Shown here: one piece after another, positions 1-51,691 of the stretch | How positions within the stretch are numbered: the stretch's first letter is position 1 | How the letters are laid out: each line of letters begins with the position of its first letter | DNA from: Alphaproteobacteria bacterium 43-37 | GTDB taxonomy: Bacteria > Pseudomonadota > Alphaproteobacteria > 43-37 | Direction of reading: 5' to 3' | NCBI GenBank assembly: GCA_001897475.1 | Contig: MKSY01000026.1 | Span: 25,324-89,323, forward strand | Length of the DNA stretch: 64,000 nucleotides | The notes under the pieces: generated by a model | Databases searched by the model: none | What the model was told of the DNA's origin: nothing | Seen by the model: only the letters and a program-made list of their open reading frames with translations | Position numbers and translations under genes: made by a program

Positions 1-100
1 TCATAAAAATATGGAAGCATCGCTTCAACCACTCTTGGATCACAAGGTGTTGTGGCCTGGTAATCAAGATATGTTGCAAGGTGTGATTGTAGTTGTTCCA

Positions 101-1252
101 TCATGATGTTATCCTCTGGGGGGCGGAATTTATGGTTTTTGAATACCTGTGTTGTACGCGCTTGTAAAGGCTTGCCCATGTTTGCATAAATTGATCCACA
201 TCTTTATCGCCTGATGACCACCCAAAGCTGACGCGGATGGCTGATTTAGCTGATTCATAGGAGGCGCTCATGGCAAGCAAAACATGGGAAGGGTGCAGTT
301 TTTTAGAGGCGCAGGCTGCTCCGGCGCTGGCATAAATATGGGCTAAGTCCAGTGTCATGAGTTGGCTCTCTTGACTGAGTGATGATACGCTAAAGCAAGA
401 TGTATTGGGTAGCCGTTCCGCATTTTTCCCATAAATAGTGATGTCAGGTGCTATGGCTTGTAGCGCATCTTCAAGTTTTTCACGCAAGGAAAATGTATTT
501 CGTTCTAATGACAATGTCATAATGTCAGGTGCGAGGGCTGCGAATCCAGCGATGGCTGGGAGATTTTCAGTGCCGGCGCGCAGGCCCATTTCTTGGAGCC
601 CGCCTTTGAACAAAGAACTTGGCTTTGCCGTGGGTGAGAAAATGAGTGCACCTATTCCAAGTGGGCCGCCAAGTTTATGAGCCGACAAGGTCATATAATC
701 CACGCTAAGTTCATCGAACATAAAAGCATGTTTTCCTAAGGCTTGAGATGCATCAGTATGAACATACCCGCCATAATGTTTAACAACGGCTGAAATTTCC
801 TTGATGGGTTGAATGACGCCTGTCTCATTATTGGCAAGCATCACGCTGACAAGAAGGGGATGCGCAATGCATCGTTTTTTGAGTCTGGTTTGCAGGATTT
901 CTAGATCGATAACACCGTCTTCGTTGACAGGCAAACAATTGTCTGGATGAGCATAGGATCTTACTGAGTCATGTTCTATGTTTGAGCATAAAATTTCAAA
1001 CCCTTGTCTTTGCGCGTCCAGTAATATTATGGCATTGGCTTCGGTCCCGCCGCTTGTGAATATAGCCTGCTCTGGCTTGGTGCCAACTACGCTTGCTATC
1101 GCTTTTCGATAGCCTTCCAGCCTCTTTTTTGCCTCGCGGCCCAAGGTATGTATGGCAGACGCATTGCCAATGCATGCGTATTCATCCATTATTGCTTTAT
1201 GGCAAATGGGCCTTAAGGGGGATGTTGCGTTATGGTCCAAATAGGTGCTCAT
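101..1252 (-). CDS. Cysteine desulfurase (NifS/IscS family, PLP-dependent)
   Basis: The ORF translation contains [13 protein letters not shown] near the N-terminus, a PLP Lys motif (SAHKLGGP) and class V aminotransferase architecture. The likely start is Met6 at 1252. The gene is coupled to the upstream Rrf2 gene. Confidence 0.85.
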
Positions 1253-1713
1253 GCTGCTCCTGCGCATGTTTTATTTTGATGAGGGTCAGAAGAAGCAAGC
1301 AGATCAATCAAGGTTTTTTGTCCCAAGTAGATTGTAATCTGTTCCTCAAGATTTTCCCATAAATGGTGAACCATGCAGCGAGCGTTCTCACCCTGGCAGC
1401 CGGTTGTGCCCGTTGAGTTGCATCGAGTCACTTGTAAAGGTTCATCGATTGCAGCGAGAATTTCAGTGATCTTAATTGCCTCGGGTGTTAATGCAAGGAT
1501 ATAACCGCCTTTTTGCCCACGGGTGCTTTTAACGAGCCCGTGGTTTTTCAATTGGTTGAATATTTGCTCAAGAAACGCTAAGGGCAGTTTTTGCCGATCA
1601 GAAATTGAGGAAAGCCTCACTGGCTCTTGAGTTGCATGCATCGCAAGGTCTGCCATTGCTAGAAGGGCGTAATGACTTTTAATTCCAAATCTCATTAAAG
1701 GTTCCGTGGTCAT
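1249..1713 (-). CDS. Rrf2-family transcriptional regulator (IscR-like)
   Basis: It has an N-terminal winged-helix region (MRFGIKSHYALLAMADLA). It lies directly upstream of the cysteine desulfurase in the same operon. The true start may be Met7 at about 1695. Confidence 0.75.
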   Translation of the reverse strand: MTTEPLMRFGIKSHYALLAMADLAMHATQEPVRLSSISDRQKLPLAFLEQIFNQLKNHGLVKSTRGQKGGYILALTPEAIKITEILAAIDEPLQVTRCNSTGTTGCQGENARCMVHHLWENLEEQITIYLGQKTLIDLLASSDPHQNKTCAGAA

Positions 1714-1875
1714 TTGATTTTTGTGGACAAAAAGCAGCGTTTTAGGTAATATAGTTCATCGCAAAAAGCGATGCTTTTTTGATCTGTGAATCCATTATAA
1801 GATTCCTGATTAATTTAGTCAACAATGAATGATTTTGGTGCTTCGACACCACAAACATAATGATAAGAGGACGCA

Positions 1876-2538
1876 ATGCCTGAGGTAATTTTTCCTGGCC
1901 CAGAAGGTCGAATTGAAGCTCGCTACCATCATAGCAAAGTTCCCAATGCGCCAATAGCCATTATTTTACATCCTCATCCGGCAGATGGTGGCACTATGAA
2001 TAACAAGATTGTTTTCAATCTTTTTAAAACATTTGTTGATCAAGGGTTTAATACTCTGCGTTTCAATTTTAGAGGGGTTGGAAGATCCGAAGGACGCTTT
2101 GATCATGGCGAGGGTGAGCTCTCTGATGCCGCTGCTGCCCTTGATTGGTTGCAGGCCCAAAATCCAAATTCCAATAGCTGCTGGGTGGCTGGGTTTTCAT
2201 TTGGTGCCTGGATTGGTATGCAGCTTCTGATGCGTCGCCCTGAAATTGATGGTTTTATTTCGATCAGTCCTCCGGCAAACCTTTATGATTTTAACTTTTT
2301 GGCTCCCTGCCCAGTATCTGGTATGATTTTACAAGGCGAGAATGATACCATTGTCACCCATGACTCTGTCTTAAAGCTGGTTGATAAGCTGAACAGTCAA
2401 AAAGGTATCGCTATTGATTATCGTGTTGTTCAAAAGGCGGGACATTTCTTTGATCAGCAATTGGAAGAGTTGAGCGCAAATGTCCTCGAATATTTAACTA
2501 AAGCCATCGCACCGCTCCATAGAGTTGCTAACCTTTAG
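1876..2538 (+). CDS. Alpha/beta-fold hydrolase
   Basis: It has a GFSFG nucleophile-elbow motif and is about 220 aa, which fits an alpha/beta hydrolase architecture. Confidence 0.6.
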   Translation: MPEVIFPGPEGRIEARYHHSKVPNAPIAIILHPHPADGGTMNNKIVFNLFKTFVDQGFNTLRFNFRGVGRSEGRFDHGEGELSDAAAALDWLQAQNPNSNSCWVAGFSFGAWIGMQLLMRRPEIDGFISISPPANLYDFNFLAPCPVSGMILQGENDTIVTHDSVLKLVDKLNSQKGIAIDYRVVQKAGHFFDQQLEELSANVLEYLTKAIAPLHRVANL

Positions 2539-2636
2539 GGTGTTGCTTGGCATTAGAGTAACTTTCCTATTGACAACAGTTGGTGCGGTTGGTTAAACAT
2601 ACGTTGCAAGTTTTTGAAGATTGAAAGATTAAGACC

Positions 2637-2762
2637 ATGAAAATTGTAAATTCTCTAAAAACAATGAAGTTGAGGCACAAGGCTTGCCAGATCGTGCGTC
2701 GTCGTGGTCGTGTTTATGTGATCAACAAGGTCAATCCACGCTTCAAAGCCCGTCAGGGTTAA
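2637..2762 (+). CDS. rpmJ: 50S ribosomal protein L36
   Basis: A 41-aa ORF ([41 protein letters not shown]) that is not in the ORF track. It has the classic L36 zinc-ribbon signature. A hairpin follows at 2817-2851. Confidence 0.85.
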
Positions 2763-3055
2763 TCAAGCCAAAATCTTTCCAAAATCCTTTTAAGTGAGTT
2801 TTAAGGGCCTGTCTTTAAGATACCTCTGGGTTTATTAGTGAGGTATTTATTATGAAGTTACAGGCCAAATGTCATTTTATGGCTGCCTTTTTATTTAACG
2901 CAAGGCCCAGCAGCTCAAGTGGCGTTGCCAGCCGCAGGATACCCTTAAATTTTAACTAATTTTTCTGCATTTTTTACGTTTCTTTAACTAAAGCTTAATA
3001 CGCATTTAATCATTTCACTCTAAGATGTTACGAGTCATCTTAGGAGTTTTATATC

Positions 3056-3796
3056 ATGAGAACTATGAAAAGTATTGTGAGCGTCATCTCAGTTATTGGT
3101 TGTGCCATGTCTTCAGTGGGGTTTGCTCGCGCTAATCAGGAAGAAGATGCGGCAATGGAAGTTTGTATGGACTATTGCTCGACGATGACCACAGTTACTC
3201 ATCAGTTTCCTGAAGCATCTCAGGCAATAATAGACACTCATAATTCAAGATCGTTTTCAGACAACTTGCTGCTTAAAAGAATTAGTGTGACCTTAGGTTT
3301 GTTGCAAGAAATGCATCAAGTATCACAAAATGTTATGGGGGCATTAATCGCATATGCTCATAGTGCATCTATCAGTGACGCTGATAGATCTAAACTCAAT
3401 CAAGCTTATAGTTATGCTGCCTCAGGTTTGAGGGTTTCATTAAGTATGGCTAATGAATGGTTAGAGGTATTGCGCACAACCAATAAATCACCGTTTCGCG
3501 TGCCTGGCTTGAACCAGCTCTCTTTAAACGTTGAAGATGTTGAAGGATTGATGACTGAAGAAGGTCGTATAAAAGCTAATGGTTATTTTGCTTCTGACAA
3601 TCCACAAGGATTTTTAACAGCACTACGTTGTGCCTATTCGGGTCTTGTTTACATGCGAGCCAGCATAGAAGGCGCCCCAACGGATCCATTGATATTAGAT
3701 GATTATTGCTGGGATCAAATTAGGCCTCTCAATGAGCCAGCCAATCAAAATGCAGCTGCTGCTGAGGAGCTGCCTTCGTCTCATGTAGAGCTTTAG
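3056..3796 (+). CDS. Secreted hypothetical protein (Sec signal peptide)
   Basis: The N-terminal hydrophobic signal (MRTMKSIVSVISVIGCAMSSVGFARA) is followed by a 220-aa soluble domain. The gene lies in the AT-rich accessory island. Confidence 0.5.
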   Translation: MRTMKSIVSVISVIGCAMSSVGFARANQEEDAAMEVCMDYCSTMTTVTHQFPEASQAIIDTHNSRSFSDNLLLKRISVTLGLLQEMHQVSQNVMGALIAYAHSASISDADRSKLNQAYSYAASGLRVSLSMANEWLEVLRTTNKSPFRVPGLNQLSLNVEDVEGLMTEEGRIKANGYFASDNPQGFLTALRCAYSGLVYMRASIEGAPTDPLILDDYCWDQIRPLNEPANQNAAAAEELPSSHVEL

Positions 3797-3861
3797 TTAA
3801 AACGGCATGGGGGCCGCGGGCCTTTAAGGTGTGCAGTGACAATTGATTATGAAGGTGAAAA

Positions 3862-4587
3862 ATGCATAAAAATTTACTAAAGTTTTTTAATGTTAACGTT
3901 CGAAATTCTCATGCTTGTAAAGTATTTAAGCGGGTTATTGCTGTTTTTCTGATGATAGGGTGTACGATCAGGGGAGATGCTTATGCAACTTCATTGGCGC
4001 CAGATGTCAAAGAGTTCTGTGATCATTTTTATGCGACACATAATGTAACGGCAGAGCAATCTGTTGATCGTGAGTTTTTGGCCAACAAAATCCGACAAGG
4101 AAAAATAGCCCATGCAAGAGTTGAGGTTGCATTAGATCTTGTAGGCGGTATGCAAAGGCCTCTTCGAGAAATGCAAAGGTTGTATCAAACGGCCCTAACA
4201 GGAAAAGGCTTTGATCCTGTTCAGCTGGATATTGAATATCAAACACTGGCAAAGCATTTTACTCTAGCATACTCAGCAATGTGGAAATACCTTAGACACA
4301 TGATTGATGGTGAGTCTCAATTTGAGATTTTGTCACAAATGATCGGGCAGTTGCCCCCAGAGTTTTCGATAGGGACGCTTAGCTGCCCGTTAAAAATTCA
4401 GGAGATAGATATGAGGCTTGTGGGCAGTAGTGAACAAGGCGGGCTTCTCACCTTAGTGGATCATTTGATAATTGGTTTGCAGTCAGCTAGGCATTCTTTG
4501 GAATATAATCAAGGCTTTTTCGAGCTGGCTCAAACCGAGCCATGTTTGGCCCGTATTATGGTGAGAGGGTTAAAGATTGGCTTATAG
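3862..4587 (+). CDS. Hypothetical protein with N-terminal membrane anchor or signal peptide
   Basis: It has a hydrophobic segment at aa 24-36, no recognisable catalytic motifs, and sits next to the secreted protein and the patatin gene. Confidence 0.45.
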   Translation: MHKNLLKFFNVNVRNSHACKVFKRVIAVFLMIGCTIRGDAYATSLAPDVKEFCDHFYATHNVTAEQSVDREFLANKIRQGKIAHARVEVALDLVGGMQRPLREMQRLYQTALTGKGFDPVQLDIEYQTLAKHFTLAYSAMWKYLRHMIDGESQFEILSQMIGQLPPEFSIGTLSCPLKIQEIDMRLVGSSEQGGLLTLVDHLIIGLQSARHSLEYNQGFFELAQTEPCLARIMVRGLKIGL

Positions 4588-4730
4588 GCAGTGGAGGCTG
4601 ATTGGAAAGTCCTAGGCTCTGCAAGCCAACTGTCAGATCAAGTCTGAATTAGTACATGTTATGCAAACAAAACTCCTCCTGAAATTTTCATTCAGGAGGA
4701 GTAAGTGCTCATTATAACTTTATAATTAAA

Positions 4731-5792
4731 TTAGAAGTCCATTGTGGATTTTACACCCAGGCTGTCAAAATTCTCTCTCATCCACTCGGATGCGCACTCT
4801 TTACCTGCCTCATAAAGGTGGTTGATAAATTCGCTTGTAGAATTGAGCTTACTTGAGAAGCCGAGTTTGGTGAAAACACTTTCGTTTTTAATGCAATGCA
4901 TATGAACGCGCTTATGCTTCTTGTCGCTTAGCTCACCCTTGTTAATGAGATCAGTAATGAAATGAATGTTGCGCATTTCTCTCATTAAAGACATGTTGTT
5001 GCTGATCTCATTCAAGCGATCGGAGATGCCACGTACATCGTGTGGAATTTCTGCCCTGCGGGTTGGGTTGAGCTGCACAATGATGATATCCTGAGCGTCA
5101 CAATTGTAGATGAGGGGATAGATAGCTGGGTTTCCAACAAACCCACCGTCCCAGTAGAATTCGCCGTCTACTTCAACTGCCTTGTGGATCAAAGGTAGGC
5201 ATCCAGATGCTAGAAGCACTTCTGGCTTTAATTCAGGGTTAGTGAAGATGCGGATGTTGCCGTCACAAACATGTGTGGCGCAGAGGAAGACTTTGTGCAG
5301 GGTTTCTCGGCGAAGGATATCAAAGTCAAATGTTTTTAGAATCACATCACGCAAAGGATCTGTATCCATTGGGTTGAACTGATAAGGTGAGAGCATGCGA
5401 ATCATTGTGTCAAAGGCCATGTATGCTGGGGTGTTATACATAGTGTACAAGCCCATCATTTTATCGATTGGGCCGGGTTTAAGTTGCCCTTTGTCTCCAG
5501 CTTCAGCGATGCCTTCCCAGAATGCTCTTAAAACTTTACGTGCGCCCTTGTTGCCATTGATGATCAGGCCCTGGCATGTCGCTACAGAGTTCATTGCTCC
5601 TGCGCTTGTGCCGCTTAATCCTTCAACTTCAATGCGATCATCTTCCAGTAATCGATCGAGGACACCCCAGGTGAAAGCACCGTGAGCCCCGCCACCTTGA
5701 AGTGCAAGATTTACACGCTTTTTGCCACTTGCGGGTGCTTTGCTAGCTGGATTTGTCATAATTTGTCTCTCCTGTTTAATTTTTTGGTGCAA
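4731..5792 (-). CDS. Patatin-like phospholipase
   Basis: It has a glycine-rich oxyanion motif (LALQGGGAHGAF), a GTSAG serine-lipase motif, a downstream DGG Asp dyad motif and a basic N-terminal leader. Confidence 0.8.
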   Translation of the reverse strand: MHQKIKQERQIMTNPASKAPASGKKRVNLALQGGGAHGAFTWGVLDRLLEDDRIEVEGLSGTSAGAMNSVATCQGLIINGNKGARKVLRAFWEGIAEAGDKGQLKPGPIDKMMGLYTMYNTPAYMAFDTMIRMLSPYQFNPMDTDPLRDVILKTFDFDILRRETLHKVFLCATHVCDGNIRIFTNPELKPEVLLASGCLPLIHKAVEVDGEFYWDGGFVGNPAIYPLIYNCDAQDIIIVQLNPTRRAEIPHDVRGISDRLNEISNNMSLMREMRNIHFITDLINKGELSDKKHKRVHMHCIKNESVFTKLGFSSKLNSTSEFINHLYEAGKECASEWMRENFDSLGVKSTMDF

Positions 5793-6314
5793 TATCCGAT
5801 ATAATTTATTCTAAAAACAAAAGGATAAGAATGTTTTAATTTAGTAATGGGTATGCCCAAACTACTATTCGTACGCGCTCCCTAATGGGTGTGATGCATA
5901 CATTGATTAAGAATGTGCAGCAAAAATGTTAATAAATCCTTACCGGGCATTTTCAATGCGTTATAATTTTTAATCTTTTCGGTAGGAAACGCTTTTTCTT
6001 GTAAAGCTGAAACAATCTGCCTTTATCGATTTTTAGGTAAAAAATACGGATGTTGGAGGGAGGATATTTTGATAATAATAGGAGCAATTAAGGCGATAAA
6101 TTCGAATAAGGTTAATGTTACGCTGTTATTGAATGCCATTCTAGCTAAATAAGATTCCAGCTATGTAAGTGTATTGCAATGTGTCATTGCGCCGGTAACG
6201 GTGGGTTAGAATAAAAAAAGTTGAGCGCAAAACAGGTGCTAGTAAGGCTTTGACGTTAAAAATTGCTACTCGTGCCGCGTAGTTGAGTTTAGCGATAAAC
6301 ACAGGAGAACCACC

Positions 6315-7115
6315 TTGAATCTTAAATGTATGGATTACAACTACTCTGCTTACAAGTATCAAGAGTCAATTTATGATGCTTATTGTGAAATTATTGAGCC
6401 ATTGCTGAAGTATTTTAGATGCAAAATATTTTATTACATGAAGTTTTTTCCTGATGGAACATATTTGTCTTTAAGTAACAACCTCAGTTGGCAAAAATTC
6501 TATTTTTCAAATATTCTTAATAATGACATGATTCAGGGGTTTAGAGCTCTTGCTTGCTATAACCTTACAGATTATGTTCCGGTTCTGTGGCCTAAAACGC
6601 CTAACTCAAAGATTACTCAAAGTTTATACGATCAAGATATTTGGAACGGCTATAAGCTTATGAAGGTTTCAAGTAATTGTGTTGAGTCTTGGGGTGTGTG
6701 TACAGATAGGCTCTCGTCAGAAAGCCAAGAATTTTATATCCGTCAAAAAGAAACATTTTTATCGTTCATTCGCCATTTTGAAGAAAAAGCAAAAGATCTC
6801 ATAAGGTTGGGGCCGTTAGAAGATTATAAGCTTGGTTATTATGAAAATGGTACGGAAACGTTTCCTATTGTTGCAAATTTGTATTCTCAAAGTTTGCTGA
6901 AAGAAGAAGAGGCGCGGATGAGAACATTTTTATGTGAGTTATACAAAGAGGATCGGTTTATTAATGTTTTGACGCCTTTGGAAACAAAATGTCTGGCGCG
7001 CTATCAAGGAGGTGAGAGGGCGAGTGATCTTTCAAAGAAATTTAACCTGCCGTTTCAGACTGTGGAAATGTTGCTTAGGAATGCGGGCAAGAAAATTAGG
7101 GGCATTGCCACTTAA
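6315..7115 (+). CDS. LuxR-family transcriptional regulator (C-terminal GerE-type HTH, solo)
   Basis: The C-terminus has LTPLETKCLARYQGGERASDLSKKFNLPFQTVEMLLRNA, a LuxR/GerE helix-turn-helix. The N-terminal domain of about 190 aa is not a canonical autoinducer-binding fold. The gene is very AT-rich. Confidence 0.6.
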   Translation: MNLKCMDYNYSAYKYQESIYDAYCEIIEPLLKYFRCKIFYYMKFFPDGTYLSLSNNLSWQKFYFSNILNNDMIQGFRALACYNLTDYVPVLWPKTPNSKITQSLYDQDIWNGYKLMKVSSNCVESWGVCTDRLSSESQEFYIRQKETFLSFIRHFEEKAKDLIRLGPLEDYKLGYYENGTETFPIVANLYSQSLLKEEEARMRTFLCELYKEDRFINVLTPLETKCLARYQGGERASDLSKKFNLPFQTVEMLLRNAGKKIRGIAT

Positions 7116-7195
7116 GCTCTTATGGGCGCTGCTATTGGGTGCGAGGTAAATGCTTTTTGGAATTCTCTTAAAGCTGAGTAAGTTTTAACGGCCTC

Positions 7196-7309
7196 TTACT
7201 CCCTCACGCCCATCCAGTTGCCAAGATGGCTGTGGGCTCTGGTGTTCTTCGCCCTGAAGCGTGCGTGGAATTGAGGAAGAAGGGCAATGCTCGGGTTCAA
7301 GCAAAATAA
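7196..7309 (+). pseudogene. Relic of a T7 gp10-like major capsid gene with an internal deletion of about 280 codons
   Basis: Positions 7196-7212 match the 5' end of the intact capsid gene (ttactccctcacgccc at 12683). Positions 7221-7309 match its 3' end (13541-13629), encoding ...KMAVGSGVLRPEACVELRKK...QAK*. Confidence 0.65.
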
Positions 7310-7442
7310 CCTTCTCAAATAAGAAGCCAATTATTTAGTTTTTAAAGATATAATTTAGTAACAGTCGCCAGGGGATTGCTGAAGATTTGTTTACATCATC
7401 GTTTCAGGTTTGGTATAAAATAAGACTAACAAGAGGAAAAAG

Positions 7443-7931
7443 ATGAGTAAGATTTCATTTACATGCGATCTCCATAAAACGGTTGAAGTCCTTCTTTGGG
7501 TCATGGGTCAATCAAAGGAGGGTGTCAATCTGTATAACCTTGTTAAAACGATCTTTCATGCTGATTGTTACCACTTGAACAACTATGGAAGGCCAGTCAC
7601 AGGGGATCATTACATTGCGATGGATCATGGAACTGTCCCCAGCTGGGTTTATGACTTGCTCAAGCATGATCCTTTTACGTTATGTGATGCTGGGTATGAA
7701 CTAGGCGGCCAAACCCTTCCCTTTGAAGCTAAAGGGAATATGCTGGTTGCCAAGCGCCCCTTTAACCCAGACTTTTTATCTGAAAGTGACATTGAGGCCC
7801 TTCAGCAAGGTTTTAAAGAGTATGGAACTTTGTCGTTTCATGAGGTCAGAAATAAGAACCACTCACACCCAGCTTGGAAGAAATACTATTTTGAACAGCC
7901 CATCAAGAAATTCTTTTTGAAGCACTTATAA
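7443..7931 (+). CDS. Panacea-domain (SocA/GepA-like, DUF4065) protein, a putative antitoxin
   Basis: The motif block LYNLVKTIFHADCYHLNNYGRPVTGDHYIAMDHGTVPSWVYDLLKH matches the Panacea-domain consensus (KLQKLLY...GPV..VY). Confidence 0.6.
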   Translation: MSKISFTCDLHKTVEVLLWVMGQSKEGVNLYNLVKTIFHADCYHLNNYGRPVTGDHYIAMDHGTVPSWVYDLLKHDPFTLCDAGYELGGQTLPFEAKGNMLVAKRPFNPDFLSESDIEALQQGFKEYGTLSFHEVRNKNHSHPAWKKYYFEQPIKKFFLKHL

Positions 7932-8006
7932 ACGATTCTGAGATATTGGAAGATCTCCAATCCATTTCCTCTCAGTCTATTAAAGTCTAGACAAGGCAAG
8001 GACAAG

Positions 8007-8383
8007 TTGGTAAAGCTGAAAGTTGGAGATGTTATTCATATTTATCAAGAGCAAATCTATTCGCCTAAAAATAAGTATCATGTATGTGTCTGCCTGGATG
8101 CAGAAGAGTATTGGTTTTTTCTGATAAACTCCCAAGCCAGAAAAATGTACGAGTGCACATGGGCGATATTGCCGCAGAAATATCCGTTTCTGAAACACGA
8201 AAGCTACATTTCTTGCTCACGAGTATTAAGCGAGTCCAAGGATATTGTTATTCAAAAAGTTCTTGGCGTTTGGATTCAGAGGACTTGAAAGAGGTTTTAA
8301 GTAAAACCCAAGCTTCTCGAACGTTAACAAAACGTCGGAAAGATCGTATTCTCCCCCAGCTTCTTCAAGCTTTATCGGCATAA
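8007..8383 (+). pseudogene. Small ORF pair (8007-8288 and 8084-8383) downstream of the Panacea gene, possibly a frameshifted toxin-like gene
   Basis: Two overlapping frames are present 75 bp downstream of the Panacea gene on the same strand. The first ORF has a GDV...K.K.HV.VCL pattern that faintly resembles PemK/MazF. No other support. Confidence 0.25.
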
Positions 8384-8471
8384 GAAGCCTCTATAAACGT
8401 TTTTCTCTAACATCAAACTTTTAAAAAAATCAAGACATCTAACTAAAGATAGATATTGGTTGTAAGGTTTG

Positions 8472-8619
8472 CTACCGCTGAATATCAACAATCAATTTAT
8501 TCCCAACCTAATTTGTTACCTAGGAGAAGAACTTGAAGGTGTCTAATTTCAAAGACCCTAGGGAAGTTATGGTGGGCGATGAGGGGATTGAACCCCCGAC
8601 CCTCTCGGTGTAAACGAGA
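8472..8619. repeat. attL: direct repeat of the attR region, including a 50-bp exact copy of the tRNA-Val 3' end (8570-8619)
   Basis: Positions 8570-8619 are identical to 47194-47243. About 95 bp of imperfect homology extend leftward (ctgaatatcaacaatcaatttattcc...ttgttacctaggagaa). Confidence 0.75.
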
Positions 8620-8734
8620 TTCCAGTATTGTCATGGAATTATCAAAAGCTATAATTTTTGTTTTATTTTTAGTGGCTTACGCAAAATCTAAAATCATCTG
8701 GTGTCACTAAAAATTTGCTATTTTATCCATTTTT

Positions 8735-8756
8735 TGTTACCTATATGTTACCTAGA
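8735..8756 (+). promoter_or_regulatory. Tandem TTGTTACCTA repeats upstream of int (candidate integrase arm-type sites)
   Basis: ttgttacctatatgttacctag recurs exactly at 47127-47148 beside attR, and as a single copy at 8514-8524. Confidence 0.4.
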
Positions 8757-8773
8757 TCAAAAATGATGGATAG

Positions 8774-9967
8774 ATGCCAAAACTAACAAGAAAGATTATT
8801 GACGAATTAAAACCTGATCTTTCAAAAGAAAGATGCCTTTGGGATACTGAGATTAAAGGGTTTGGTATAAGGATACAAAAGAGCGATAAGAAAACGTTTA
8901 TTTATGTCTACAGAAACTCAAGCGGCAAGCTGAGAAAATTCAAGCTTGGTAATTATGGTAGCCTTACTGTTGAGCAGGCAAGAGAGCGCGCTTTAAAAAC
9001 TTCTGCTAAGGTTATCCTTGGTGAAGACCCTGTTAAAGAAAAGGAAGAGATAGTACTCGCTCGAAAAAATGCAGTTTACACTGTTTCTGACCTCATAAAT
9101 GACTACATGTTAAATTATGCTCCAGCAAACATAAAAAAAATTACCATAGGAAAATGGAAAAGCTTTATAAGGCTTTATATCTTGCCCGAATGGGGGGCTA
9201 GACCAGTCAATGAAATTAAAAAATCTGATGCTGAAAAGCTAAAGGCTAGCCTTAAGGATAAAAAGACTACTGCTAACCAGGTATTATGTATACTCTCAAG
9301 TATGTTTAATCATGCCATTGAATGGGGTAAAATCACTGAAAATCCCATTACTAAAGTTAAAAAGTATAAGGAACATAAAAGGCTTCGTTGGGCTGATGGT
9401 GAAGAGTTTGAACGATTATGGTCAACCCTTCAAAGTTACAAGGGCTATGCGCCTGCTGATGTTCTTATCTTTATTCTTTTAACTGGCTCACGTAAAAGTG
9501 AGGTTTTTAAGGCTAGTTGGGATCAATTTGATCTTGAAAAAGGTATTTGGGTTAAGCCCCACATTAATACAAAGCAGCAACGAAACGAGTATATTCCTCT
9601 TTCTCATGAGGCTATAGAGTTTCTTCAGGAATTAAGAGGGTATTCCTCTGACTATTACCTTTTTCCTGGTCGGGTTCCGGGTTCACATATTACAGATGTC
9701 AAAAAGTTCTGGGCTAAGGTTCTTAAAGAAGCCAACATTGACAACCTGCGCATCCATGATCTGCGGCATACGTACGCATCCCACCTGGTCTCCAGTGGTT
9801 TGAGTCTTAGTATTGTGGGTAGGCTTTTAGGACACTCAAACCCAAATACCACCCAGCGCTATGCCCATTTGGCTGATCAGGCTCTGCGTGATGCCACAAA
9901 CCTGTTTGCGGGTAAGCTGAAGAAAATTACGCAGAAAGATTCATCCTCAAAAGAACCTTCATTATAA
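8774..9967 (+). CDS. int: Tyrosine integrase (P4-type, with N-terminal arm-binding DUF4102-like domain)
   Basis: The catalytic block is RIHDLRHTYASHLVSSGLSL...LLGHSNPNTTQRYAHL (R, HxxR, Y). The N-terminus has WDTEIKGFGIRI. The gene is adjacent to attL. Confidence 0.9.
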   Translation: MPKLTRKIIDELKPDLSKERCLWDTEIKGFGIRIQKSDKKTFIYVYRNSSGKLRKFKLGNYGSLTVEQARERALKTSAKVILGEDPVKEKEEIVLARKNAVYTVSDLINDYMLNYAPANIKKITIGKWKSFIRLYILPEWGARPVNEIKKSDAEKLKASLKDKKTTANQVLCILSSMFNHAIEWGKITENPITKVKKYKEHKRLRWADGEEFERLWSTLQSYKGYAPADVLIFILLTGSRKSEVFKASWDQFDLEKGIWVKPHINTKQQRNEYIPLSHEAIEFLQELRGYSSDYYLFPGRVPGSHITDVKKFWAKVLKEANIDNLRIHDLRHTYASHLVSSGLSLSIVGRLLGHSNPNTTQRYAHLADQALRDATNLFAGKLKKITQKDSSSKEPSL

Positions 9968-12675: not shown

Positions 12676-13629
12676 ATGACGTTTACTCCCTCACGCCCAG
12701 GTATCAACAGTCTCAATCCGCAGACTGGTGATCGCGAACTGTTTTTAAAAGTCTACAGCGGTGAAGTGTTAGCCGCCTTTGAAGAAAGCACGGTGGCCAT
12801 GAGCCGCCATATGGTGCGCACCATCCAAAATGGTAAAAGCGCTGCCTTCCCTGCCCTCTGGAAAGCGGATGCGTATTACCATAAACCAGGTGAAGTCATT
12901 GCGCCTCAAGCCTTTAACCATGGTGAACGAGTGATCACTATTGATGATCTATTGGTCTCAGCATCCTTCTTACCCAGCATTGATGAAGCCATGTCCAGTT
13001 ATGATGTCAGAGCCGCTTATTCCAAAGAAGCAGGCTTTGCTTTAGCCAGACGCTTTGACCAGAACGTCCTCAAGACCGGCATTCTGGGTGCACGCTCTGG
13101 CCCAGCTGTGAGTGGCGGCCCCTATGGCAGTATTCTTGAACGAGACAAGATTGACTCTGACAGCATGGTTCTAGCCGAAAGCATCTTTGAAGCCGCCCAG
13201 TTGCTCGATGAGAAAGATGTTCCGTCACAAGATCGCTTCATCTTCCTAAGCCCCAAGCATTATTACATGCTTGCCAGAAACACCACGGTGCTTAATAAAG
13301 ACTGGGGCGGCAGTGGCGCTTACAGTGATGGTAAAGTCCTCAAGATTGCCGGCATCACCATTGTGGAGACCAACAACCTACCCAACACCAACATTAATGA
13401 TGGCTTGGATAAATACCGTGGCGACTTCTCTAGCACGGTAGCTCTTGTGATGCATAAAACAGGTGTTGGCACCGTCAAGCTCATGGAGATGGCGACCGAG
13501 TCTGAATATGACATCACCCGTCAAGGATTCTGGACGGTGGCCAAGATGGCTGTGGGCTCTGGGGTTCTTCGCCCTGAAGCGTGTGTTGAATTGAGGAAGA
13601 AAGTTGGCAGCCCAGTTCAAGCAAAATAA
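12676..13629 (+). CDS. Major capsid protein, T7 gp10-like
   Basis: LFLKVYSGEVLAAFEESTVAMSRHMVRTIQNGKSAAFP and the C-terminal VGTVKLMEMA...GVLRPEA align with T7 gp10A (LFLKVFGGEVLTAF...SRHMVRS...GKSAQFP; VGTVKLRDLA...GGLRPEA). Confidence 0.9.
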   Translation: MTFTPSRPGINSLNPQTGDRELFLKVYSGEVLAAFEESTVAMSRHMVRTIQNGKSAAFPALWKADAYYHKPGEVIAPQAFNHGERVITIDDLLVSASFLPSIDEAMSSYDVRAAYSKEAGFALARRFDQNVLKTGILGARSGPAVSGGPYGSILERDKIDSDSMVLAESIFEAAQLLDEKDVPSQDRFIFLSPKHYYMLARNTTVLNKDWGGSGAYSDGKVLKIAGITIVETNNLPNTNINDGLDKYRGDFSSTVALVMHKTGVGTVKLMEMATESEYDITRQGFWTVAKMAVGSGVLRPEACVELRKKVGSPVQAK

Positions 13630-13705
13630 CAAATTTTTGATAGATACTTGTTTTTTTATTTGTGTTATTTAAGATGCTTTTTAAGAAAATTTTGAAAGAA
13701 ATAAA

Positions 13706-14164
13706 ATGAGTGAAAGCAGATTAACAAAGAACTTTATTGCTACTGAAATTAACCCTATTGTTGCGACTTATTTTGATCTTAAAGATTATTTGAGTGCCTT
13801 TATAAGTCAGGCTAGAACTGTTACACATATTGAAACTTTATTGCAACCATACCTAATCCCAAGGCAACCTTCATTTGCAAATGATCTTGTGCCTATACTT
13901 AAAAAACTCTCGGCAGAAGACGGCGCTATATTAACACGCTTTATTTCTCATCATGAAACCATAGTAAGAATGTTGAGTGATACAAAACAGCTAAATCTAG
14001 ACCATGCTGAAGTATTGTTTGAAAAAGTAGTAGAGGGTTTGCAATTGCTTGGCGATTTGCTTGAAAAATTTAATGTTGATTTAATACTTGTAACCCCTCG
14101 AGGGCAAAAAATCATGGCTATTCAAAAAATAAGAGATCCAAAATTTTATGAAATAATTATTTAA
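13706..14164 (+). CDS. Hypothetical protein, an AT-rich moron between the capsid and tail genes
   Basis: The 152-aa ORF has a strongly AT-rich upstream region and its composition differs from the flanking structural genes. No recognisable domain. Confidence 0.4.
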   Translation: MSESRLTKNFIATEINPIVATYFDLKDYLSAFISQARTVTHIETLLQPYLIPRQPSFANDLVPILKKLSAEDGAILTRFISHHETIVRMLSDTKQLNLDHAEVLFEKVVEGLQLLGDLLEKFNVDLILVTPRGQKIMAIQKIRDPKFYEIII

Positions 14165-31404: not shown

Positions 31405-33348
31405 TTAAGACTTTTTGCCAGACCAACACCATTTTGCAAAATCAACTGCGGCCCAGAAAACCCCACCACGCCCACCTCCTGCAGCATCGCCTCCTTGACT
31501 CAATTCACCACCAAGACCAACACCTGTTCCTCCGGCTGCTGCTGCCGTACCTCCAGTTGATCCAACTGCAGCACCGGCCCCGGCTGAGGTAGAACCACCT
31601 TGCAACGTTGTTCCCCCTGCTCCAGTGACTGTGCTTCCTCCAGTAGCCACTGTTCCATAATTAAAGACTGCACCAGCCCCAGCAATTACCCCTGGCCGCC
31701 TTACAAAATAAATAATCGAACCAACAGCCGCAATTCCCACTACGGTACTAATGATTGGGCGCTCTAGAGCATAATGAACGGCACCATGGCCATAAGTTGT
31801 TAGTATATTTAAAATGCCGCCTTGCTGCACATTATCTCCCTGATTGATTAGCACCCTATTCCTTGCTCCAACACCTTCAACATTATGCGCACCTCTAGCT
31901 TCACCCCCATTTGCGGCTGCTGTTGCTTGTCCTGTTGAGGCTGCGCCCCTACTTGCCGCTCCTGCGCCGCCATGGGTGGCAATTGTGCCACCAGGGTAAG
32001 CGGTATGATGGTCTCCAGCTATGTTGTTGACAACATTATATTGAAAAGATTGGGCTGATCCTAGTGTTGGTGTGGCTGGCATTGACGCCGCGCCTGGAAC
32101 TGCACTGGTGGGTAACGTAGCCACGGAGAAGGATGATGCCACCGTATCAAATTCTGACCCTACGTCTCTTTCTGAGACTTCTAGTGTTTTTGCAGCTTCA
32201 GCAAGAATTGCTTGTACGGTTTTATAAGCATCTGATGAACTTGGAATACGGGATAGTAATTCCCTTAATACTGCCTGAGCCTCTTCTGCAAGTTCTGCGT
32301 TATGGCTAAATTTTTCCCAAGCAGACTTGAATGAATTAATGTCAATTCCATTTCCTCTTAGTTTAAGCCTATAAAGTCTCGCCCAAGCACCGTATTCGTT
32401 ATCCGGGTTCCTGCTTTTTACAATTTCATCTAAGTCCGCTAATGCCTCTTTGTGATCTGCATATTCGCCATTTCTATATGCAGCAATAAGTGCTCTTATG
32501 CTCGCATCTCTGTTAGCTATTTTTTCACGATCTCCTCCACTTGGTATTCTAATGTGTCCTAACCATGTGTCTCTTCTCTCTGTCAACCCCGGGGTTCCTG
32601 GCGCTGCTGCAGCGCCAACATCCACCGCTGTTGCTCTTCCTCTCCCGGTCTCGGCAGCTGATGCTGAGACAGGCTCAAACGCCCCCGTAGCTGGGTTAAG
32701 CCTGGTATGTAATGTTGGTAGTCCAGCTCCACCGCTTGCCCCTGCACCCCCTGCTGCTGCTAAGCCTGGCGCTGAGTCATCTTCTTCAACATCTGTTCGG
32801 GCAGGAACGCCTGGCTTGTTTGTTTTGGTAGCGAATGGTGTTGGTGATGCAGAAAAATAGGGATTACCCCTGCCAACTTTAATGCCATTAACAATATCAT
32901 ATGGGAGGTAAGAGGGCGTTGGGGAAGAAGCTGGGTAGAGTACTGCTATTTGTTCAAGAGTTAGCCTACCTTGCTCACCATCCACCCTTACTGGATAATT
33001 TCTTAGGCTTTCTATTCCATGAGTTGTTGTTTCATCAGCTCTTCTTGAAGGAGAAGCCGTTGCTGAGGGCATCATTGAAGGTTCAAACATGGGATTTACG
33101 TCAAACTGTATGGCTAATGGGCTTGGATTCGGAAGAGTAACAGTTCTTCCTCTTGGAAAAAACCCACCAAAGAACTCACCGGCTCCTGAAGGCTGGGCAC
33201 AGACATTCTTAGTTGGGAATGATGAAAGAATGGTGGTCAAAGCCAAAGCTTTAGCCAAAAGGAGTTTTGTTCCTTTACCTAACGTATTGCTGATATTCAT
33301 AAAAACCTCCAAGAGTGCATGAATATTTGTAACTATTATGTGATTCAT
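31405..33348 (-). CDS. Large Gly/Ala-rich protein predicted to be secreted, with a C-terminal TM helix and a poly-Gly tail
   Basis: It has an N-terminal signal peptide (LLAKALALTTILSSF), a TM helix (ISTVVGIAAVGSIIYFV) and a C-terminal G/A/T low-complexity tail. It is on the minus strand, convergent with the terminase. Confidence 0.5.
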   Translation of the reverse strand: MNHIIVTNIHALLEVFMNISNTLGKGTKLLLAKALALTTILSSFPTKNVCAQPSGAGEFFGGFFPRGRTVTLPNPSPLAIQFDVNPMFEPSMMPSATASPSRRADETTTHGIESLRNYPVRVDGEQGRLTLEQIAVLYPASSPTPSYLPYDIVNGIKVGRGNPYFSASPTPFATKTNKPGVPARTDVEEDDSAPGLAAAGGAGASGGAGLPTLHTRLNPATGAFEPVSASAAETGRGRATAVDVGAAAAPGTPGLTERRDTWLGHIRIPSGGDREKIANRDASIRALIAAYRNGEYADHKEALADLDEIVKSRNPDNEYGAWARLYRLKLRGNGIDINSFKSAWEKFSHNAELAEEAQAVLRELLSRIPSSSDAYKTVQAILAEAAKTLEVSERDVGSEFDTVASSFSVATLPTSAVPGAASMPATPTLGSAQSFQYNVVNNIAGDHHTAYPGGTIATHGGAGAASRGAASTGQATAAANGGEARGAHNVEGVGARNRVLINQGDNVQQGGILNILTTYGHGAVHYALERPIISTVVGIAAVGSIIYFVRRPGVIAGAGAVFNYGTVATGGSTVTGAGGTTLQGGSTSAGAGAAVGSTGGTAAAAGGTGVGLGGELSQGGDAAGGGRGGVFWAAVDFAKWCWSGKKS

Positions 33349-33621
33349 TATTAAGTTAACGATAATAATGGATATGGATAAATCAAGTACTATAACGGTA
33401 TAATCTAGGGAAAATGATCAAGCTTAAGATAAATATCTATTTCAATCAATGAAATAGAAGATATTATTTTTAATGAATAATTGGCATTCACTAAACGTTC
33501 CATTGATTGTTAATATCTTTAAGCAAATTACTTAATAACAAAAATATTTTTTTACAAAAATCTCAAACCCCAACTCTCCCGGTAACCGTCAGCGCTTTCC
33601 CCCGTAGGGGTGGCCACTCCG

Positions 33622-34218
33622 TCATAGCAGATCGATGAGTGCACGTTGGGCGTCGGTGTTAGCATCAATGTAGCGCTGGGTCATGGAAAGGGACGCATGA
33701 CCTGCCAGCAGCTGTACGTCTCTCAGGCTTCCTCCTACTGTCGACACCTTCCTAGCCGCATTGGTGATGAATGTTCTGCGCCCAGAATGGCTGGAGCAGC
33801 CGATGAGGCCAAGAGCTGCATACACCTTTTTGAACCAATGGACTACGTTGCAGGTGTGCATTTTACAGCCATGCTTACTAAAGATGATGTGTTTATGAGG
33901 CTCTGGTGAATGGTGCGCCTTCCTTACAACCATTCTTAAAATGATAAGTGCATCTTTCAACTGTGGATGCAGAGGAATAATCCGTCCTGACTTGCCCTTG
34001 CTGGCAGAGGATGGCAGGTGGATGTGGTTACTGATGTTCCCATCAGGATCAAGCACCATGGCCCAGGTTAGCTCAGCAATTTCCTTGGCTCGTAAACCTG
34101 CTTTAAAGGAAAGCAGCACCATTACCATATTACGCTCAGGATAGGTTAAGGCTGATACGTGATAAAGTATCCTCTCCATGTCTTTTGTTCTTAAAACTTT
34201 TGCTTGTCTACCAATCAT
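33622..34218 (-). CDS. Tyrosine recombinase, catalytic domain only (198 aa)
   Basis: It has the catalytic R (LRAKE), HSGRRTF (HxxR), LAGHASLSMTQRY (H and Y) and lacks an N-terminal core-binding domain. Confidence 0.7.
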   Translation of the reverse strand: MIGRQAKVLRTKDMERILYHVSALTYPERNMVMVLLSFKAGLRAKEIAELTWAMVLDPDGNISNHIHLPSSASKGKSGRIIPLHPQLKDALIILRMVVRKAHHSPEPHKHIIFSKHGCKMHTCNVVHWFKKVYAALGLIGCSSHSGRRTFITNAARKVSTVGGSLRDVQLLAGHASLSMTQRYIDANTDAQRALIDLL

Positions 34219-34752
34219 TTAATGCACTCATTTCAGCGGTTACTCACTACTTTTATGTGCAAATCTATGCTTGATTTTTAAAGATGGCCCTTGAATAGGG
34301 CTTCAACCTTCACTTGCACAATAAATTAATCTTTCATGTTCAACAGATGCTATGTGAGCATTGTTCAGGGCAAAAATCAAGTCTGCCGCCAACTCAACCC
34401 GTTGGTTTTGCTGGAGTTTTAGTCCATCCAAGTCAGTGTGTTGCCTTAAAAATTTTGAAGTTTGTCACTTTAACAAAAGCCGGGATTTTATAATGGAGTA
34501 TTTGTAGCTGGTAAATGGTCAGTGCATTGTGGATTGAACATTGATCAAATGAAACTGTAATATGTTGATTCAATATGATGTTTTAAGGCTTATGTCAACA
34601 TAATGATCAATTATGCATCATAATCCCTATATTTTGACCCCTGAATGGCCTTTGGGATATTGGGTGGCCCAAAAGCTCCAGAAATAGATAAAACGTATCA
34701 GTGAGCAGATTTTGGGCATTTATGACGATGTTGCTGTTTTTGTTATCTTTTC

Positions 34753-35793
34753 TCATAAAGCCTTCTTAATTAAACCAACCAAAGTCTTCATGGCTTGATC
34801 ATGAATAACGTTCTTATGGCAGTGTAGGTAAACATCAGCCGTGCCAACAGGCTCGTTCATAACCTTGACGAGTTGACTTCTATGGATCAGATCAGGCGGG
34901 TAAAGGGCAATGCCAACACCTACTTCACATAGCTTGAGCGCCATGTAGGAATGATTCACCTCTGTGATGTTTTCGGGTGGGATGTTTCCAAACCCAGCCA
35001 TCCAGTTGGCATCAAAAGTTGTATTGCCACTCACTCGTGTCACAATGATGGAATGGTTTGTTAAGTCAGCTGAAGAAAGGCTGCCAAACTTCTTCATATA
35101 TTCTGGACTTGCAAAAAGATAGCTTTGGTAGGTTTTTAAATGGATGGCTTCAAAGCCTCTGGAGATTTGATCAATGGGCCAGATGATGACGTCTGCTTCT
35201 TTAAACTTCTTATCCGGCAGAGCTGATAGCGTGTAAATGCATAGCTGAATCTGGGGGAATGCATCTTTAAACTGTTTCAGCACTTTGGGAAACACAGATA
35301 TGCCAAGAGGCAGTGTGGTGAATATTTTTATCTGATGGATGTTTGTTTTATCGGTTGCATCATTATAAGTGTCCCACTGCAACTTTGAAAAAATCTCATT
35401 GACCATTTGATAAACTTTGTCTCCTGAAGTCGTCAGCTCATACCCACGTGGTTCTCGATCAAATAGCAAAACCCTAAGAATATCTTCGAGCTTTTGAATA
35501 TTATAAGTTACCGCAGAAGGGGACATTTTTAGGTTCTTTGCGGCTAATCTACGGGTTTTGTAATAAACGCAGGCATGAAAGACTTTGAGCTGCAAAATGT
35601 TGGCACAGAGGAGGGTTTCATTTAAATGATTCTCACAAGATACGTTTTCTTGTCTTTTCCTTAGATGTGAAACTTTGGGAGTTCTAGGCTTTTTTCTTTT
35701 AGTGATTTGAAGTGATCGTTTCTGTGTCACGGTTTTAGCCTCTTTCTTGAAAACTAAACTCAAAAATTGCTCTGCCACAAATATACCGATCAA
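34753..35793 (-). CDS. LysR-family transcriptional regulator with an N-terminal Lys/Arg-rich extension
   Basis: It has an HTH (LQLKVFHACVYYKTRRLAAKNLKMSPSAVTYNIQKLE) and a LysR substrate-binding domain. It is divergent from the RNAP gene. About 60 aa of basic leader (KRKKPRTPKVSHLRKRQ) precede the HTH. Confidence 0.8.
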   Translation of the reverse strand: MIGIFVAEQFLSLVFKKEAKTVTQKRSLQITKRKKPRTPKVSHLRKRQENVSCENHLNETLLCANILQLKVFHACVYYKTRRLAAKNLKMSPSAVTYNIQKLEDILRVLLFDREPRGYELTTSGDKVYQMVNEIFSKLQWDTYNDATDKTNIHQIKIFTTLPLGISVFPKVLKQFKDAFPQIQLCIYTLSALPDKKFKEADVIIWPIDQISRGFEAIHLKTYQSYLFASPEYMKKFGSLSSADLTNHSIIVTRVSGNTTFDANWMAGFGNIPPENITEVNHSYMALKLCEVGVGIALYPPDLIHRSQLVKVMNEPVGTADVYLHCHKNVIHDQAMKTLVGLIKKAL

Positions 35794-46653: not shown

Positions 46654-46932
46654 ATGACTCAACACTATGCCTACACAAAAGACAACAAAGCCACCCGCCT
46701 TATGGGCGAACAAGAGGTAGCCAAGATGCTGAATGTCAGCCCAGGCACACTAAGAAATCAACGTTCCAAAAAGATCGGCTTACCGTATGTGAAGATTGGA
46801 AAGAAGGTTCAATATAGGTATTCAGATATCGAGGATTTTATTGAGAAAAACATTCGCCTGATCACAAAAGATCACTCAATCGGTGCAGCAATTAAAATAG
46901 GACTGGAAAATGACAAAAATATTGCTAACTGA
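46654..46932 (+). CDS. Excisionase-family HTH protein
   Basis: QEVAKMLNVSPGTLRNQRSKKIGLPYVKIGKKVQYRYSDIEDFI is paralogous to the neighbouring genes. Confidence 0.5.
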   Translation: MTQHYAYTKDNKATRLMGEQEVAKMLNVSPGTLRNQRSKKIGLPYVKIGKKVQYRYSDIEDFIEKNIRLITKDHSIGAAIKIGLENDKNIAN

Positions 46933-47119
46933 AAAGCAGGTTTCAGAATTATACAATGTAAGCGTTGGAACTCTGCGCTCTCAAAGAGTAACCGGCAAAG
47001 GAATGCCCTTTGTTAAGTTTGGAGGTAAAATCCTTTATAGGACTGAAGATATTGAAAAATATATTCAGGGTAGACTTTTTAACTCTACCACTGAATATCG
47101 ACAATCAATTTATTCCTAA
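46910..47119 (+). CDS. Excisionase-family HTH protein (candidate recombination directionality factor)
   Basis: KQVSELYNVSVGTLRSQRVTGKGMPFVKFGGKILYRTEDIEKYI. Its 3' end lies inside the att-flanking repeat, and a relic copy of this 3' end is at 8478-8505. Confidence 0.5.
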   Translation: MTKILLTEKQVSELYNVSVGTLRSQRVTGKGMPFVKFGGKILYRTEDIEKYIQGRLFNSTTEYRQSIYS

Positions 47120-47243
47120 TCTAACTTGTTACCTATATGTTACCTAGGAGAAAAATCCAGAAGTTGCTAACTTCAAAAACCCTAGGGAAACTATGGTGGG
47201 CGATGAGGGGATTGAACCCCCGACCCTCTCGGTGTAAACGAGA
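47086..47243. repeat. attR: direct repeat partner of 8472-8619, overlapping the 3' 50 nt of tRNA-Val
   Basis: Positions 47194-47243 are identical to 8570-8619. The upstream imperfect homology contains the TTGTTACCTA tandem at 47127-47148. Confidence 0.75.
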
Positions 47244-47268
47244 CGCTCTCCCGCTGAGCTAATCGCCC
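47194..47268 (-). tRNA. tRNA-Val (anticodon TAC)
   Basis: The reverse complement reads GGGCGATTAGCTCAGCGGGAGAGCGTCTCGTTTACACCGAGAGGGTCGGGGGTTCAATCCCCTCATCGCCCACCA. It has a 7-bp acceptor stem, a TTTACAC anticodon loop, a TTCAATC T-loop and CCA. Confidence 0.85.
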
Positions 47269-47272
47269 ATAA

Positions 47273-47316
47273 AAAACCCCAGGTTGCTAAACAATGCAGT
47301 CCTGGGGTTTGTTTTA
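47273..47316 (-). terminator. Rho-independent terminator of hupB
   Basis: On the minus strand it reads CCCCAGG...CCTGGGG followed by TTTTTT. Confidence 0.5.
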
Positions 47317-47318
47317 AA

Positions 47319-47591
47319 TTAGGAAATGGCTTCAGTCAAGCCCTTACCGGCACGAAACTTTGGTTGTTTCTTTGCTGGGATCTTAATTTTTTCACCCGTC
47401 CGAGGATTGCGACCTTCTGTCGCTGGACGGTTGGCAACTGTAAATGTGCCAAAGTTAACCAGACGGACTTCTTGACCTTTTTTCAAGAAATCTGTAATTG
47501 ATTCAAGAACGCCATCAACTGCCTTTCCGGCGTCCGTTTTGGTAAGACCTGTTTTATCGGCTACCAAACCAACGAGATCATTTTTGTTCAC
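47319..47591 (-). CDS. hupB: DNA-binding protein HU
   Basis: A 90-aa ORF containing FGTFTVANRPATEGRNPRTGEKIKIPAKK, the HU/IHF arm motif. Confidence 0.85.
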   Translation of the reverse strand: MNKNDLVGLVADKTGLTKTDAGKAVDGVLESITDFLKKGQEVRLVNFGTFTVANRPATEGRNPRTGEKIKIPAKKQPKFRAGKGLTEAIS

Positions 47592-47753
47592 GTATATGCT
47601 TCCTACTTTCCAACCTAACCAATGTTACTTCCGGCTGTATTAATTTGCCTAGTCGTAACGTACGAACCATGTTAGTGCTAAAAAAATGATTACGTCAACG
47701 AAAAAACTAGATTTTTCCAAGAAAAAACATAAAAAAAGTCGCAAAAACTGAAA

Positions 47754-50171: not shown

Positions 50172-50293
50172 CTTTGGAGCTATTCTACATACGTATGATA
50201 GGTTTTCTCGTGGGGTTTTAGCAATAAAATTTTTGTCTTAAGAGTATTTTGCTGCTTTACGGCAAAGAAAGGTTTGAAAAATATTGCTTTCGA

Positions 50294-50806: not shown

Positions 50807-50820
50807 TGTAGCATTTCGCT

Positions 50821-51651: not shown

Positions 51652-51691
51652 TGTTTGCCTCCAAAATATAATTCACTAAATATACCAACCA

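Follow-up and report, generated by a model that had tools for sequence, protein, structure and literature searches.

The 64,000-nucleotide stretch of contig MKSY01000026.1 from Alphaproteobacteria bacterium 43-37 that was analysed here (the window) carries an intact T7-like temperate prophage, hereafter the resident, at a tRNA-Val(TAC) gene. On the side of the resident away from that gene lie 1.4 kb of DNA (7196-8567) that, taken as a whole, are very probably best explained as the inert remnant of an older T7-like temperate phage. Read leftward from tRNA-Val, the locus consists of the resident from its excisionase (xis) end to its integrase (int) end, a displaced copy of the attachment site (att) core, the P arm assigned to the older phage, a frameshifted Panacea gene pair, and a relic of a T7-type capsid gene (Table 1), which is the layout that serial integration into a regenerated tRNA gene predicts. 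An earlier note on this DNA, made from the sequence alone, had proposed serial integration at tRNA-Val and had regarded the DNA directly left of the displaced core as former prophage DNA. Both proposals are supported by our analysis, the former by prophage-derived DNA left of the core together with a resident that behaves as a separate unit at the core, and the latter by capsid pieces and att arm homology within 7196-8567.

Capsid pieces and att arm beside the resident prophage

The open reading frame (ORF) at 12676-13629 is the T7-type major capsid gene of the resident (PHROG 267, E 2e-79; Pfam Gp10A-like), and two pieces of such a gene stand next to each other at 7196-7310. The 5' piece is identical to 12683-12699 at 17 of 17 positions (BLASTN) and to the corresponding gene of a second T7-like prophage, L087, at 16 of 17, while the 3' piece (7217-7310) aligns with 13537-13630 at 86.6% identity over 97 columns (E 5e-25, BLASTN). 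One to four unmatched bases separate the two pieces, and about 835 nt of the capsid gene are deleted between them. By a rough estimate, the chance of finding a 17-mer from the capsid gene beside the 3' match is about 1e-6. The description of 7196-7309 in the earlier note, as a fusion of the first 17 nt and the 3' end of a capsid gene, is right in that both pieces are real, but the 5' piece represents nt 8-24, the ATG and the first 7 nt of the gene being missing.

Homology is also found around the att core, where 8472-8619 aligns with 47085-47243 at 83.8% identity over 160 columns (E 2e-43, BLASTN). This bears out the claim that about 95 bp left of the attL core resemble phage-side DNA at attR, the 3' end of the excisionase-like gene included (83 of 95 positions identical). 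The counterpart of that gene in the resident, ORF 46910-47119, matches excisionase and helix-turn-helix (HTH) families (Pfam HTH_17). Further, the 9-mer TGTTACCTA occurs five times in the 64 kb, compared with 0.28 copies expected, always in att arms and in one orientation: at 8735 and 8746 beside the integrase gene, at 47127 and 47138 in the P arm, and at 8514-8522 in the relic arm. The integrase of the resident has an Arm-DNA-bind_3 domain, and we consider these copies candidate arm-type integrase binding sites on the basis of sequence and placement. The capsid pieces precede the xis arm on the plus strand, in the same order and orientation as capsid and xis in the resident. When window positions 1-8650 were compared with 8651-64000 (BLASTN, word size 9; TBLASTX), nothing besides the capsid pieces and the att region resembled the resident.

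The relic is independent of the resident. The earlier note had suggested a comparison with strains lacking the element, and in two independent assemblies of the same species the resident is precisely absent while the relic is kept. In L003/L248 (ENA ERZ24842104), window 1-8619 is present at 99.99% identity and continues straight into 47244-52049, the tRNA-Val gene being intact in L003, and in the Logan contig L250, HU and tRNA-Val are followed by 8619-8390 at 100% identity. Thus, the resident is present or absent among assemblies that are otherwise >99.9% identical, whereas six independent assemblies (all six contigs read), prophage-free ones included, have the relic at 100% identity, and the capsid relic itself was found in a prophage-free contig. 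The resident is a discrete unit that is present or absent at the core, and the relic stays on the chromosomal side. Since all sources are metagenome assemblies, and the short Logan contigs end at 7216 and within the core, one might suspect an assembly artefact in which reads of the intact prophage had given rise to the pieces resembling capsid and arm. However, the identity of these pieces to the resident copy is no more than 82-87%, JGI, NCBI, ENA and Logan assemblies agree on their sequence at 100%, and contigs without the prophage contain them. Because the prophage-free assemblies keep the relic DNA joined to tRNA-Val, the relic is neither a mis-assembly nor a part of the resident, and an artefact has a close to negligible probability; the match at 7196-7309 survives both careful alignment and the suspicion of mis-assembly, the two points on which the earlier note had staked it.

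L087 (IMGVR_UViG_3300003757_000005) comes from the same metagenome and has about 83% DNA identity to the resident. At its end (L087 1-1626), a different integrase of 406 amino acids (aa) lies beside a partial non-Val tRNA 3' end (L087 ~206-250), and therefore the same phage backbone occurs with a swapped integration module. In ungapped comparison over the 97-nt capsid piece, the relic is identical to L087 at 88 positions and to the resident at 80, and the resident is identical to L087 at 79. Because the distance between relic and resident is about that between resident and L087, the divergence is one between phage lineages, not that of a recent duplication. To judge from these identities, the older phage is a different member of the family that carried a tRNA-Val-type att module, rather than a duplicate of the resident. 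Scanning the viral collection for the pattern of the relic arm returned nothing.

The Panacea pair inside the relic

The Panacea gene (SocA/PanA-type antitoxin) starts 133 bp after the stop of the relic capsid gene. The called ORF, 7443-7931 (162 aa), matches PF13274 with E 5e-16 and 60 bits against a cut-off of 25.7, and the C-terminus of the family (LFEALINDSEILEDLQSISSQSIKV*) is found in another frame, ending at 7990. The gene is regarded as frameshifted because this conserved C-terminus sits out of frame and because the homologues, which are mostly 169-195 aa long, cover only 78-93% of the query. The partner gene, a presumed toxin, follows. With its two frames joined, it aligns end to end with genes of 122 aa (L258, 37% identity) and 118 aa (L259, 34%) that lie directly after Panacea genes, and its 68 relatives from an exhaustive HMMER search, nearly all 113-144 aa long, match at most the first 89 residues of the 93-aa ORF. 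Since both reading frames are frameshifted, both genes are pseudogenes, and the frameshifts are not sequencing errors, because the sequence is identical in six independent assemblies. As for Panacea being retained cargo, its gene is indeed part of the relic, though one that is frameshifted, as is its partner.

Toxin-antitoxin pairs of the PanA-PanT type, with a Panacea domain, have been described, also in phages (PMC8832971). Like those, the pair here consists of a Panacea protein gene directly followed by a small conserved partner gene, the same partner family directly following Panacea genes in L258, L259 and L265, and has relatives in phage-type contexts (beside a terminase gene in L258, and in the IMG/VR contig L265). 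Unlike those, both genes here are frameshifted, and the partner has no Pfam or PADLOC match. PADLOC also gave no matches for the Panacea protein, the ORFan at 6315-7115 or the minus-strand genes of the resident, and a scan of the viral collection with the Panacea protein found nothing.

The interval between the capsid and tube genes differs among these phages, being about 26 bp in L087 and containing a 152-aa ORF (13706-14164) without Pfam, PHROG or PADLOC match in the resident, while in the relic the Panacea pair follows the capsid gene. Because L087 has only about 26 bp there, the interval can be seen as a variable accessory slot, and the pair may have been an accessory gene of the older phage in this slot, a reading with which the arrangement is consistent without proving it.

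Two relatives of the pair deserve mention in their own right. On the phage-like contig L258 (109-3051), an intact Panacea and partner pair has a terminase large-subunit gene on one side and a PemK/MazE pair on the other, so that two toxin-antitoxin modules stand side by side. The closest Panacea relative by identity (68%; L261, 1912-4534) is also truncated (121 aa) and adjoins an IS21-type IstA/IstB pair. This contig was considered as a case of a Panacea gene sharing a contig with a patatin homologue and was rejected, since the Panacea gene is cut by the IS21 element and is all that the contig has in common with the window.

Extent of the relic and neighbouring genes

According to the earlier note, the older prophage spanned 2800-8619 and had eroded to an accessory island with a patatin gene, a LuxR gene, secreted proteins and Panacea as retained cargo. 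We found phage ancestry only in 7196-8567. Neither DNA nor translated searches gave any match between 2763-7195 and the resident, L087 or 160 other T7-like viral loci, and TBLASTX of 2763-8570 against the 160 loci matched the capsid 3' piece alone. A third att core or P' arm was not detected in 2763-8471, and neither was an integrase-like sequence. A far att remnant had been expected near 2.8-3.0 kb, but the best local match to the tRNA or core was 14 nt, equalled or beaten by 18 of 200 shuffles and thus at chance level, and the P' arm gave nothing.

Orthologues of the patatin gene were found at 96%, 81-83% and 62-64% identity, and the nearest named relatives belong to the Holosporales, e.g., Ca. 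Bodocaedibacter. In gene-call coordinates, the sister contig with the 96% orthologue (JGI 3300059473, 19,224 bp) carries L36, a 255-aa ORF, a 135-aa ORF, patatin, a 109-aa ORF, HU and Lon, with no Panacea gene called and about 1.5 kb less between patatin and HU. In L256 (81%) the neighbours are SLT and DapB, in L262 (83%) tRNA-Pro and a cold-shock gene, and in L260 (Ca. Bodocaedibacter, 62%) the gene sits after FumC. Since the orthologues lie among non-phage genes wherever the neighbours can be read, patatin as prophage cargo is unsupported. A metagenome scan with a degenerate patatin pattern returned a single 1.1-kb contig.

For the alleged LuxR gene, ORF 6315-7115 (266 aa, GC content 35.7%), Pfam gave nothing even at E<10, a comparison with 5.8 billion proteins turned up no homologue, and the C-terminal 70 aa have no sequence match in PDB. 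A single-sequence structure model is poor (pLDDT, the predicted local confidence score, 37) and confident only at residues ~221-261, a C-terminal three-helix unit, whose helices superpose on the LuxR-type HTH of RcsB and VraR at 0.6-0.7 Å over 44-45 residues, with all Foldseek E-values >0.06. It is thus an ORFan, for which the modelled fold gives a weak hint of a LuxR-type HTH. The ORFs in 3056-4587 have N-terminal hydrophobic segments and no family match. We also asked whether these two secreted-like ORFs are paralogues of each other, or match ORFs beside L36 in L256, and neither holds. The secreted-like ORFs, patatin and the ORFan are chromosomal neighbours of the relic that may or may not be related to the phage.

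A larger island would fit the GC content of 5760-7115, about 35.6% compared with about 44% in the flanks, the restriction of ORF 6315-7115 to this species, and the roughly 1.5 kb missing from the sister contig. However, besides the lack of phage homology, of att sequences and of a direct repeat at the far end, the patatin orthologues of L256, L260, L262 and the sister contig lie among non-phage genes, and the sister contig, in which no Panacea gene is called, still has patatin next to HU and Lon, along with L36 and two ORFs. That the whole of 2800-8619 is an eroded prophage or island is therefore unlikely.

The chromosomal flanks consist of iscS, iscR, an alpha/beta hydrolase gene and rpmJ on the left and of HU, Lon and Smr on the right, and exact protein matches assign the window to the MAG species "Alphaproteobacteria 43-37" (sp001897475). 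The iscS/iscR/hydrolase arrangement (window 101-2538) is seen again in most of the distant alphaproteobacterial loci fetched (L008-L086). Among the matches listed, the hydrolase of the distant loci has 62-71% identity to the window copy and none of the loci has tRNA-Val, HU or Lon downstream of it; for that reason the hydrolase scan is uninformative about the boundary of an island.

Along the resident, the gene order is integrase, portal, scaffold, capsid, tube, nozzle, internal virion proteins, fibre, terminase and then, after a minus-strand block, single-subunit RNA polymerase, SSB, endonuclease I, primase-helicase, DNA polymerase, exonuclease and three HTH_17 genes. The minus-strand block (31405-35793), which lies between terminase and RNA polymerase and is unusual for a T7-like genome, contains genes for a 647-aa protein without family match, a tyrosine recombinase consisting of the catalytic domain only (198 aa, 33622-34218) and a LysR-type regulator (34753-35793). 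It may serve lysogeny control or be cargo.

Table 1. Positions in the window of the relic, the resident prophage, the integration target and neighbouring reading frames.
Feature	Position	Strand	Basis or remark
ORFs without demonstrated relic membership	2763-7195		
Signal-peptide-like ORF	3056-3796		
Signal-peptide-like ORF	3862-4587		
Patatin gene	4731-5759	-	
ORFan	6315-7115		
Capsid relic, 5' piece	7196-7212	+	Equals nt 8-24 of resident major capsid gene; start codon missing
Capsid relic, 3' piece	7214-7310	+	Roughly the final 94-97 nt of a T7-type capsid gene, with its TAA stop
Panacea (SocA/PanA-type) antitoxin gene	7443-7990	+	Pfam PF13274; frameshifted near 7905-7916
Panacea partner gene (presumed toxin, no named family)	8007-8383	+	Two-frame alignment; frameshifted near 8268-8272
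P arm assigned to the older phage's att site	8472-8567	+	Against 47085-47191: 83/95 identical, 13 gap columns
Excisionase-like (HTH_17) gene remnant, last 11 codons	8472-8506	+	Aligned to 47085-47119; stop mutated, TAA to CAA
Displaced att core	8568-8619	+	52-bp exact copy of 47192-47243: tRNA-Val 3' part plus 2 nt
Resident intact T7-like temperate prophage, 38.6 kb	8620-47191	+	PHROG and Pfam annotation
Integrase gene	8774-9967		Resident prophage
Major capsid gene	12676-13629		Resident prophage
RNA polymerase gene	35954-38440		Resident prophage
Last xis-like gene	46910-47119		Resident prophage
tRNA-Val(TAC), integration target	47194-47268	-	ARAGORN; only tRNA gene in window

Proposed history and its meaning

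Taken together, we propose the following history. The older phage would first have entered tRNA-Val(TAC) at its 3' end, by means of a tyrosine integrase with the att specificity of the resident's enzyme. At least three deletions would then have reduced it: one of the region from the integrase gene to the start of the capsid gene, with the far att site, one of the ~835 nt inside the capsid gene, and one of about 30 kb, which began downstream of the toxin-antitoxin pair and spared only the last 11 codons of the excisionase-like gene. Both genes of the Panacea pair would have survived these deletions, perhaps from the variable slot just after the capsid gene, each to be frameshifted later. The first integration would have left the tRNA gene intact, so that a second related phage could integrate at the same core, and the resident would later have done so, pushing the relic and the 52-bp core copy away from the tRNA. 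The resident has a single-subunit RNA polymerase and a T7-type morphogenesis module, whereas only the capsid gene fragment survives of the older element, which cannot move, since it has no integrase and no second att site. We infer the order of integration from the relic being decayed and found in every contig read, and the resident being intact and polymorphic.

The reverse order, in which the resident came first and a phage that has since decayed later entered the displaced core copy, would give an identical final layout, both copies of the core having core-type sites. It is nevertheless very unlikely, given that the decay (three deletions, two frameshifts) is seen in the relic, which every contig read contains, and that the resident is intact and varies among assemblies that are otherwise >99.9% identical. 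It is also conceivable that 7196-8567 never was an integrated prophage, its arm having been captured from host DNA by aberrant excision, or belonging to a satellite or other integrative element that shared the int/xis/att module; att modules are exchanged between elements, and the L087 backbone has a different integrase and att site. Against this, the arm contains the 3' end of an xis-like gene as well as a repeat of the arm type, copies of which stand beside the integrase gene too, and 1.2 kb from the arm there is a capsid gene fragment whose order and orientation are those expected, so that this origin is slightly less probable even than the reverse order. As for the relic being inert, the old P arm, the core and the P' arm of the resident (8472-8773) could together act as a chromosomal attP-like site that alters the efficiency of T7-like excision or integration at tRNA-Val, and, separately, the truncated Panacea antitoxin could neutralise the toxin of incoming related phages; we consider such activity improbable, about as much so as the reverse order.

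Several points weigh against an older T7-like prophage followed by the resident, the reading that we prefer. The layout alone leaves the order of integration unfixed, since a phage could in principle use the displaced core, and the prophage-free contigs could be products of excision rather than strains that were never lysogenised. The left edge of the relic is a mere loss of homology at ~7196, with no recognisable junction. A fuller copy of the older phage did not turn up anywhere, and its T7-like nature is for that reason read from 114 nt of capsid sequence and the att arm. Finally, no relative of the Panacea pair was found in any T7-like genome among the contigs with relatives that were examined, and the pair could consequently be a later insertion.

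An older T7-like prophage followed by a second would have precedents in its parts. T7-like temperate phages that integrate at tRNA genes are known among pelagiphages (10.1101/410191), from LUZ100 (PMC10134795) and among T7-like cyanophages (PMC8776855). The resident resembles them in having a T7-type RNA polymerase, virion and terminase genes, a tyrosine integrase and a location at a tRNA gene, while the host lineage differs and membership of the relic is judged from the 114 nt of capsid gene. Tandems of a prophage remnant and a full prophage that use one tRNA att site are described in Oenococcus oeni, where the remnant, with degenerate att sequences and without morphogenesis genes, did not stop further integration at the intact site (PMC8074189). 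The arrangement here has the common att site as well but differs in its phages, which are T7-like, in its host, an uncultured alphaproteobacterium, and in the size of the remnant, which at 1.4 kb and with no intact gene is much smaller. In "grounded" or defective prophages, the integrase, att site and structural genes are deleted and fragments become fixed in the chromosome (PMC6379469). The relic has likewise lost integrase, att site and structural genes by deletion, but, unlike that class, it shows no sign of domestication, since both of the genes that can still be recognised in it carry frameshifts.

Remnants that adjoin a prophage at a tRNA site are already known, and the relic is an ordinary genome scar of this kind. 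In annotation, we advise against calling the patatin, secreted-like and ORFan genes prophage cargo and suggest a pseudogene label for both genes of the Panacea pair. For the biology of the uncultured alphaproteobacterium 43-37, the relic very probably records at least two uses of one tRNA-Val site by related T7-like temperate phages, and it adds a small data point on prophage decay.

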